Origin: Dipteris shenzhenensis
Taxonomy: Eukaryota
Direction: 5' to 3' (one strand)
Assembly (NCBI GenBank): GCA_047967505.1
Contig: CM106538.1
DNA length: 64,000 nt
Shown in pieces: positions 24,899 through 26,198 of this stretch. Made by a program: the position numbers and the translations under genes. Below the pieces are notes generated by a model, which was not told the origin of the DNA, ran no database searches, and saw only the letters and a list, made by a program, of their open reading frames with translations. The first letter of the stretch is position 1. Every line of letters begins with the position of its first letter.

Positions 24899-26198
24899 CT
24901 AGTCCTCCTCTCGATCCTCCAATTCATTTATGCCTTTAAAGGCTTCTTCCTCACTTGAGCTACCATCAACAACTTGATTCTCTTCAGCATGTTCCATTGA
25001 AATAAAGAGCTCCTCCACAAAAGACACCATCCTCTTGTCATTGTCCATACCACAAACAAGTCTTCCATAGTGCAAGGTAGCCTCTATAGTGCTACCACAA
25101 CCCATCATTAGGTCAAGTACACTACCATTTGATGGTGTCAATGCCTCTATCAAAGTTGCCATAAATATTGGGCTCTTCTCCAACCCACCTAAAGAAAGAA
25201 AGTAATGAACATTGTTTAGTCTCATATTGGATGGCTCTTCACCAACCACATTCTAAAATATCTACCAACACACCAAACCAATCATACCACGACATAAAGT
25301 TCCATCTCCGTAAACATGTCTAGTAGTAGCAGGTAGGAAGTGTCAAACACAATCACGTGACAAGTCAAGAAATGGATAACCATCAACACAATGCTTGATT
25401 GTGAAAGGAATGCTTCCCTTCCTATGATAAATAGACATCATCAATCAATGTACCTTTTGCAAGAAAAAGGGTTAAAGGTGAGAGATATAAATGTTTAAGC
25501 GCAACATAAACAAATGCATCTTGCATAGTGATGAATTTTCTACAACACATGAACTTCTTCCCAAATCAAAAAAGGTTGCATACCTCCCTTCCATTTGATG
25601 CTCTTGGACTCAAACCCACAGCCTCATCAAAGTACATGTACATTTGCAATGTCAACTCATGGTTCTTCATCATGGCAACAACACGAACTTGCCTATGAAG
25701 ACTCTCAGTGTGAAAAACAACTATGTGTCCTCATCATCTCTGCTACGGGCAATAAAGGAAGCCCGAACCAACACATGCTTTTGTTTGTCAAAAGAAAATT
25801 TTTCATCTATCTCCTTTGTCCATCTAGCCAACTTGTGATTTCCATCCCAATAGATGAACATCTTACTAGCAAGATCACTGCAATCATCATTGCTTTGGAC
25901 CTCCCTTTCAAATTCATCATTATAACATCTTTCCATATTGGATCCCAATTAGCCTTGACATTATCATGCTCTTGTGACTTTGTTTCTGTGACCTTTGTTT
26001 TGAAGGTTTTTCTTTCAACTCCACAGTAGTATCCATGTCCTCACAAGATTCGCCTTCTTCATGGCTTATCTCAATTACCTTCTCTATGTCAGCCATCTGC
26101 ACATGCTTATAGCTTGTATTCTTTCTAGAAATTATTTCACAGTACAAAACAGATAATTGAGATGATGACTTCTTCACAGTAGATCTTGTCAAGACCAT
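24899..26198 (-). pseudogene. Spliced pseudogene: ParB/Srx-like domain plus N4/N6-type (beta-class-like) DNA methyltransferase C-terminus
   Basis: KMFIYWDGNHKLARW at 25832-25849 (ParB-type DGNHR). Last exon EKSPIFMATLIEALTPSNGSVLDLMMGCGSTIEATLHYGRLVCGMDND fits the K-P..L...LI...T..GD.VLDPFxGSGST..AA...GR..G.E.D pattern of N6_N4_Mtase motif I. GT-AG intron 25287-25189 keeps the frame (LCR-G|GLEK). Frameshifts and stops are present and no motif IV is seen. Confidence 0.65.

Follow-up and report, generated by a model that had tools for sequence, protein, structure and literature searches.

What remains of a DNA methyltransferase in a stretch of plant repeat DNA from Dipteris shenzhenensis (GenBank assembly GCA_047967505.1, contig CM106538.1), and could it still act on DNA? 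The locus that raises this question lies on the minus strand at positions 24899-26198 of the window, by which we mean the whole 64-kb stretch of DNA that was analyzed. A first-pass annotation, made from the letters alone, had described it as the decayed, internally deleted relic of an intron-containing gene in which a ParB-like part preceded an N4/N6 DNA methyltransferase-like part. We propose that the locus is probably what is left, catalytically dead, of a rare gene adapted to plants whose ancestor was a beta-class (permuted, PF01555) DNA amino-methyltransferase of bacterial or phage origin. The surviving part would be one terminal exon, comprising the helix that precedes motif I, the GxG loop, a G-R..G.D strand with a cofactor-contacting acidic end, and a plant-specific acidic tail. 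A script check on the minus strand found every sequence feature of the first-pass annotation at the coordinates given there; as judged by sequence comparison, only the terminal exon among those features exceeds chance.

The terminal exon resembles the cofactor end of a beta-class methyltransferase

The exon and its recognizable parts are the following.

24899-25188, minus strand: terminal exon, 95 codons plus a TAG stop at 24901-24899, with a predicted S-adenosyl-methionine (SAM)-binding C-terminal end and an acidic tail
25088-25120, minus strand: motif I region VLDLMMGCGST with the GxG cofactor loop, L-M standing in place of the usual P-F; aligned to LVLDCFMGSGTT of M.MboIIA and IVLDPFMGSGTT of DpnA
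25037-25066, minus strand: motif II region GRLVCGMDND, G-R followed by a strand with an acidic end; aligned to GRNFIGCD of M.MboIIA
24902-25015, minus strand: acidic, serine-containing C-terminal tail, common to the Psilotum homologue described below, including D-G-S-S and L-E-D

Against Pfam, the exon matched positions 168-217 of the 221 in PF01555 (N6_N4_Mtase) with an E value of 8.6e-5 and a score of 23.0 bits. Eight PHROGs families were matched, six of them annotated as methyltransferase or DNA methyltransferase and two of unknown function, the best being the DNA methyltransferase family phrog_3008 (E 4.8e-8). All 30 of the 30 nearest ESM Atlas clusters carried PF01555 (best score 0.96, recognition value 2748). 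A tblastn search against phages returned 11 weak records, 9 annotated as methylase or methyltransferase and 2 unannotated, and in a pairwise comparison the exon aligned to residues 190-245 of a 254-residue phage adenine methylase with 19 of 56 positions identical (34%; E 7e-8).

The motif I loop and the downstream G-R..G-[ED] element are both present in degenerate form, and the loops align to those of M.MboIIA, DpnA, and the phage methylase. An element upstream of motif I, described in the first-pass annotation as K-P, is indeed there, but it reads K-S-P (within GLEKSP). AlphaFold2 gave no confident fold for the exon alignment, with a predicted local distance difference test (pLDDT) of 51.6. 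The matches in PF01555, PHROGs, and the ESM Atlas, the phage methylase alignment, and the Psilotum relative together support the earlier proposal that the last exon encodes the SAM-binding C-terminus of a beta-class (PF01555-type) amino-methyltransferase.

A transcribed relative in Psilotum

HMMER searches over 1.84 billion representative proteins recovered three sequences at E values up to 0.001, one of which is a real relative of the exon. This sequence, P0001 (E 5e-12), is an 89-residue open reading frame (ORF) in a Psilotum nudum transcript (bases 285-554 of c18419_g1_i2; EukProt EP00249 P004920), and it is identical to the terminal exon at 36 of 88 positions (41%). The other two, a 1,955-residue repeat protein (P0002) and a Pro/Cys-rich repeat protein (P0003), were set aside as repeat artefacts with six short matched stretches each. 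P0001 independently matched PF01555 at positions 173-217 of 221 (E 1.7e-4, 22.1 bits), and its match in the window is unique (E 7e-18, with the next best at 0.24).

The two plant sequences have in common the degenerate motif I, the G-R..C-G.D.D element, and the acidic D-G-S-S / L-E-D tail; the presence of this tail in a transcribed homologue bears out its description in the first-pass annotation. Invariant between them are G29, G31, and T33 in motif I and G41, R42, C45, G46, D48, and D50 in the motif II region, columns that coincide with positions conserved in methyltransferases. P0001 starts at the Met equivalent to 25162-25160 and ends within a residue or two of the end of the exon; it is known from the 89-residue ORF alone and is silent on the N-terminal half. 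We read the exon and P0001 as a genuine, rarely annotated plant family, with a predicted intron directly before the homologous block at this locus.

No further relatives of the exon were found among longer proteins, viral contigs, or bacterial and archaeal genome contigs, and a profile of the exon and P0001 recovered only P0001 from proteins of near length. Peptide patterns and a degenerate DNA pattern likewise found no further family member in metagenome contigs. Against the PDB, the same profile had among its best chains, all of them weak matches (E 0.007 to 0.44) and each at the C-terminal end of the chain, M.MboIIA (E 0.007), DpnA (E 0.045), two unnamed methyltransferases, and the bdelloid N4CMT chains (E 0.4-0.44), which are weaker matches than the two adenine enzymes. 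The fragment does not have the length needed to build a tree, and its ~50 residues of cofactor end cannot separate adenine from cytosine enzymes.

The catalytic half is missing

In the beta-class fold, the C-terminal piece gives the cofactor-binding strands, and the N-terminal 170-190 residues give the catalytic loop and the DNA-reading region, a division illustrated by the 254-residue phage adenine methylase. The surviving piece would, in a working enzyme, form strands 1-3 of the Rossmann sheet and bind SAM, while the N-terminal ~170-190 residues, found in no frame here, would provide the (D/S/N)PP(Y/F) catalytic loop and the region that reads DNA. In agreement with the first-pass annotation, which saw no DPPY or SPPY, motif IV ([DNST]PP[YFWH]) is absent from every frame of 24899-26198. 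Reading through the three minus frames of 23001-27998 revealed no further PF01555 stretch, only the match at positions 169-217, and a read-through of 25444-24902 that included stops and intron did not extend the match upstream of position 168. Nor did the upstream ORFs match the N-terminal half of PF01555 (positions 1 to ~167) in Pfam at E values up to 10.

The N-terminal half is in no frame, and the locus therefore could not methylate DNA, whatever its splicing. As it stands, the locus is most likely inert.

SPPY and SPPF strings do occur at 27032-27551, and we rejected them as motif IV because they are part of a repeated palindromic unit. The repeated unit, at 26960-27612, holds the palindrome GGGGGGCTCAGCACCGAGCCCCCC and translates to ..SPPY or ..SPPF in several frames, where it is mistakable for motif IV.

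Upstream frames and the ParB question

Upstream of the terminal exon, the locus can be divided into the following features.

25920-26198, minus strand (open frame 25920-26201): ATG open frame, lysine/serine-rich and then acidic; no family in Pfam
25721-25948, minus strand: WDGNHK open frame of 75 codons, with WDGNHK at 25849-25832; the claimed ParB-like part
25584-25730, minus strand (open frame 25566-25730): open frame ending at the 25583 donor; no recognizable family in Pfam, PHROGs, or NCBIfam
25454-25583, minus strand: probable second intron of the first-pass annotation, 130 nucleotides, 67% A+T, donor GAG/GTATGC with GT at 25583-25582 and AG at 25455-25454
25288-25453, minus strand: "exon 3" of the first-pass annotation, in frame with the last exon, with two in-frame TGA codons and no homology
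25189-25287, minus strand: putative last intron, GT..AG, 99 nucleotides, 66% A+T, frame-preserving

An acceptor AG at 26203-26202 follows a T-rich tract and precedes the ATG at 26198-26196. The three upstream ORFs (the ATG ORF, the WDGNHK ORF, and the ORF at the 25583 donor) occupy three different frames; they were presumably once part of the same gene as the terminal exon. The interval 25189-25287 contains two in-frame TAG codons and ends in a strong plant-type acceptor (T-rich pyrimidine tract, TAG/G), and the terminal exon is probably spliced at 25190-25189. On the opposite strand, a 158-codon open frame without a Pfam family (25553-26029, plus strand) runs across all three sense frames of the upstream part.

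One alternative is that a ParB-methyltransferase fusion, of a type found in phages or mobile elements, has decayed at this locus, with the catalytic region internally deleted and the upstream frames representing ParB- or sulfiredoxin-like remains, much as the first-pass annotation had it. The ParB-like core motif is h-D-G-x-H-R-h, in which the R binds phosphate. Flanked on either side by hydrophobic residues, WDGNHK conforms to this core, lies on the right strand, and stands upstream of the methyltransferase end; it has K, however, where ParB domains have the phosphate-binding R. Over all six reading frames, the window contains the general pattern DG.H[RK] three times, where shuffles give 0.66, and the pattern also turns up off-frame in a copia element (29902-29916). 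A stricter WDGNHK-type pattern occurs once in six frames against 0.04 in shuffles, a contrast to be read with the pattern having been fitted post hoc.

Direct comparisons speak against this alternative. The WDGNHK ORF had no match in Pfam at E values up to 10 or in PHROGs or NCBIfam at E values up to 1, and the ParB profile PF02195 matched no minus frame of 23001-27998; of the two kinds of profile by which the first-pass annotation had proposed to check the locus, PF01555 was matched, below its cut-off, and ParB was not. The best ESM Atlas match of the ORF (0.82) was a plant winged-helix family at a recognition value of 1868, which is below the level reached by 91 of 100 real families and at chance level, and in the PDB it matched nothing more relevant than a designed helix bundle (E 0.63). 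None of its six weak tblastn matches in phages was ParB, no relatives appeared among longer proteins or viral contigs, and AlphaFold2 modeled it with a pLDDT of 47.3. A ParB domain was also absent from all four of the examined phage methylases nearest to the terminal exon.

Fusions of ParB with N6_N4 methyltransferases are described as enriched in phages and prophages in the available text of one study (PMC12704722), and the arrangement proposed for this locus, in which a ParB-like motif precedes the methyltransferase end, would be alike. Here, by contrast, no profile detected a ParB domain, and the stretch from WDGNHK to motif X is too short to encode both the remainder of a ParB domain and a catalytic half. 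The same text names sulfiredoxin as the common ParB-fold protein in eukaryotes (PMC12704722). On balance, we consider a ParB fusion origin unlikely, and the ParB-like half of the first-pass annotation finds no counterpart in these searches. As a separate possibility, reading FIYWDGNHK as the I-I-W-x-K stretch of methyltransferases was rejected for want of profile or pairwise support.

A captured exon?

The surroundings of the candidate gene bear on a further alternative, in which the last exon of a still intact parent gene reached repeat DNA as a copy, through a transposon or a rearrangement, and the frames upstream have no connection with it. The gene lies inside a 2.7-kb island (24899-27607) with a minisatellite block, itself duplicated, on one side and a copia element on the other, and its flanks are unrelated repeats.

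24014-24898, no strand assigned: minisatellite block, the downstream flank, starting at the base after the stop codon; 78-91% identical to 22487-23365
27608-32764, plus strand: copia-type long terminal repeat (LTR) retrotransposon, the upstream boundary, with integrase, reverse transcriptase, and RNase H frames between LTR-like repeats

The minisatellite mosaic, made up of 19-nucleotide, GGA-rich 13-nucleotide, 44/88-nucleotide, and 13-nucleotide CATGTAGGAGTTG arrays, occurs twice (22487-23365 and 24014-24898), ~1.5 kb apart, and the second copy ends at the stop codon of the gene. The LTR-like repeats of the copia-type element (27608-27971 and 32406-32764) are 89.6% identical. More broadly, the window is plant-type repeat DNA filled with long gypsy and copia polyprotein frames, CACTA-type transposase fragments, and simple sequence that includes long GA-, CT-, and proline-codon-rich stretches.

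Such a setting would suit a captured fragment, as would homology that ends exactly at the acceptor and upstream frames for which no relatives were found among longer proteins or viral contigs. Around the island, however, we saw neither terminal repeats nor target duplications, the single inverted pair in 20000-30000 lying inside a minisatellite, and the 64-kb window holds no second copy of the gene region. Multiple copies with common flanks, terminal repeats, or target duplications would likewise be the mark of transport by a mobile element, which the first-pass annotation took to be probable and which is at this point a conjecture. No parent gene is known either, and the sole relative is itself a short ORF. 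Capture of a last exon therefore strikes us as an improbable history for the locus.

Broken gene or live short protein?

Taken literally, the exon model of the first-pass annotation is interrupted by an in-frame TGA at two places and changes frame twice, which that annotation does not mention. The donor and acceptor of its second intron are present, but the acceptor at 25455-25454 meets a TGA three codons on (25447-25445), and a second in-frame TGA follows at 25345-25343. The description of the gene as decayed fits these stops and frame changes and the absent motif IV; given the thousands of open GT-AG paths through the region, the gene may nevertheless be either broken or intact.

Several observations weigh against a dead remnant of a DNA methyltransferase. 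Enumeration by bare GT-AG rules, from the ATG to the conserved Met, gave 5,601 open paths with two introns and 497,755 with three. An open model of 210 codons can be drawn by hand arithmetic with introns at 25992-25878, 25772-25320, and 25287-25189; since an open ATG-to-stop path can be drawn with GT-AG introns, the label of pseudogene is not proven. All PF01555 scores miss the gathering threshold of 26.7 bits (23.0 for the exon, 21.8 for the read-through, and 22.1 for the Psilotum relative), and the homologous stretch is only ~50-90 residues long. In NCBIfam, the best weak match of the exon was a corrinoid-protein methyltransferase (E 0.0012), ahead of DNA methyltransferase models at 0.012 and 0.065, and the cofactor end alone is therefore no strict proof of a DNA substrate. 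Finally, 41% identity with a fern transcript, tail included, argues that the family has been under selection, and this copy might still be expressed.

In a different explanation, the locus is a live gene for a short, non-catalytic protein, either a spliced product of ~210 residues or one of 87 residues from the Met at 25162-25160. Such a protein, a free-standing SAM-binding half-domain with an acidic tail, would be a subunit with a binding or regulatory role. The terminal exon has 95 open codons behind a strong acceptor, the Psilotum relative is transcribed with its called ORF running from the equivalent Met to the same end, and the cofactor-contact positions are conserved between both plants. 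In the 210-codon model, a GT..AG interval of 115 nucleotides (25992-25878) would bring the ATG frame into phase with the WDGNHK frame, and another of 453 nucleotides (25772-25320), with a good pyrimidine-rich acceptor, would skip both TGAs.

Open GT-AG paths exist by the thousands, however, and this model therefore carries no weight. A total of 72 three-intron paths that omit WDGNHK end in the last intron of the first-pass annotation; among the 40 of these that were listed, none has 25992-25878 as its first intron. ORF callers begin at the first Met after a stop, and the Met common to the exon and P0001 may mean nothing. Half of a Rossmann sheet is not expected to fold alone, and the low pLDDT of the exon alignment points the same way. 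A live gene of this kind seems quite unlikely to us, and whether the gene is intact or broken, the product would be without the catalytic half.

Chance resemblance without any gene, for which one could cite the modest profile scores and the two Pfam scores under the cut-off, is scarcely credible given the agreement of independent methods (Pfam, ESM Atlas, PHROGs, phage tblastn, the PDB profile, and the phage methylase pairwise alignment), the library-wide E value of 5e-12 to a plant transcript that independently matches the same PF01555 positions, and the gap between that transcript's match in the window and the next best.

Relation to known enzymes and significance

Reading the locus as a dead remnant of a beta-class gene, we can compare it with characterized members of that class. 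In M.MboIIA (1G60), DpnA (5HEK), and the Aeromonas phage LPM4 adenine methylase, the same order of pre-motif-I helix, GxG loop, G-R, and acidic strand end occurs at the C-terminus of the domain. Relative to these enzymes, the locus lacks the ~170-190 residues that include the catalytic (D/S/N)PP(Y/F) loop and DNA-recognition region, has L-M for P-F, adds an acidic tail, carries a putative intron directly upstream, and scores below the family cut-off. The compact 254-residue phage methylase, which has no acidic tail, ends 9 residues past the aligned block.

Eukaryotic PF01555-type DNA methyltransferases named in the available text of two reports are limited to the sperm enzymes of Marchantia polymorpha and the bdelloid N4CMT (bioRxiv 10.1101/2021.02.12.428880, PMC8885841). 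The Marchantia enzymes MpDN4MT1a/b, writers of N4-methylcytosine (4mC) in sperm, retain TSPPY and group with the 4mC enzymes of prokaryotes (bioRxiv 10.1101/2021.02.12.428880), and they are reported to have no additional N- or C-terminal domains (PMC8885841). Compared by their published description only, they too are land-plant genes of prokaryotic amino-methyltransferase origin; TSPPY is absent from our locus, in contrast, and the acidic tail is present. The bdelloid N4CMT (PDB 8S9M/8S9N) is likewise a PF01555 enzyme with introns domesticated in a eukaryote, and the PDB match to it is weak (E 0.4). Its gene has five introns, and the protein, a full PF01555 enzyme that also bears a chromodomain, is in the available text reported absent from other sequenced eukaryotes (PMC8885841). 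Whereas N4CMT is full length, active, and equipped with a chromodomain, neither a chromodomain nor a catalytic half was found in the minus frames of 23001-27998.

Iyer et al. report several acquisitions of adenine methyltransferases by eukaryotes, some from phage ParB-terminase loci, and few N6-adenine (N6A) methyltransferases in land plants (PMC4738411). Our literature search, which did not reach supplementary tables, brought up no PF01555-derived family described from vascular plants. The ancestor of the gene may have entered plants by horizontal transfer. The locus and the Psilotum transcript show that at least two lineages of vascular plants have retained a piece of a PF01555 enzyme together with a eukaryote-style tail, with a putative intron directly upstream at this locus. 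The finding is a lead rather than the discovery of a working system, a degenerate member of a known enzyme class, and it can serve as a probe when fern, lycophyte, and gymnosperm genomes are searched for a full-length enzyme that writes 4mC or N6-methyladenine (6mA).

A bolder extension of this reading would make the locus a decayed or truncated copy within an undescribed, intron-bearing, transcribed family of ferns and their allies and the source plant, derived from a bacterial or phage beta-class N6A or N4-cytosine DNA methyltransferase and marked by a plant-specific acidic tail. We hold out only a slim chance for it. If it were true, intact members could represent a second, independent acquisition of a 4mC/6mA writer in land plants beside Marchantia DN4MT1, perhaps again associated with swimming sperm.

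Other repeats in the window

The copia-type element that bounds the island upstream (27608-32764) has an internally duplicated reverse transcriptase region, with 29594-30454 and 30757-31620 giving nearly identical protein, and relatives of the element lie at 57489-61340. A CACTA/TNP2-like transposase region is present in two plus-strand copies (32932-35835 and 44098-47066) that are ~94% identical, the first of them truncated at its 5' end where copia-derived sequence adjoins. Between these copies, 38145-41975 forms an array of ~3.8 kb that matches itself in direct and inverted orientation at many offsets with 65-95% identity, in the manner of a large palindromic or tandem satellite-like block. 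The segment 20600-22000 is very G-rich and GA-rich simple sequence, with a GC skew of up to 0.64, a (GA)n tract of ~245 units, and a (TA)28 run.

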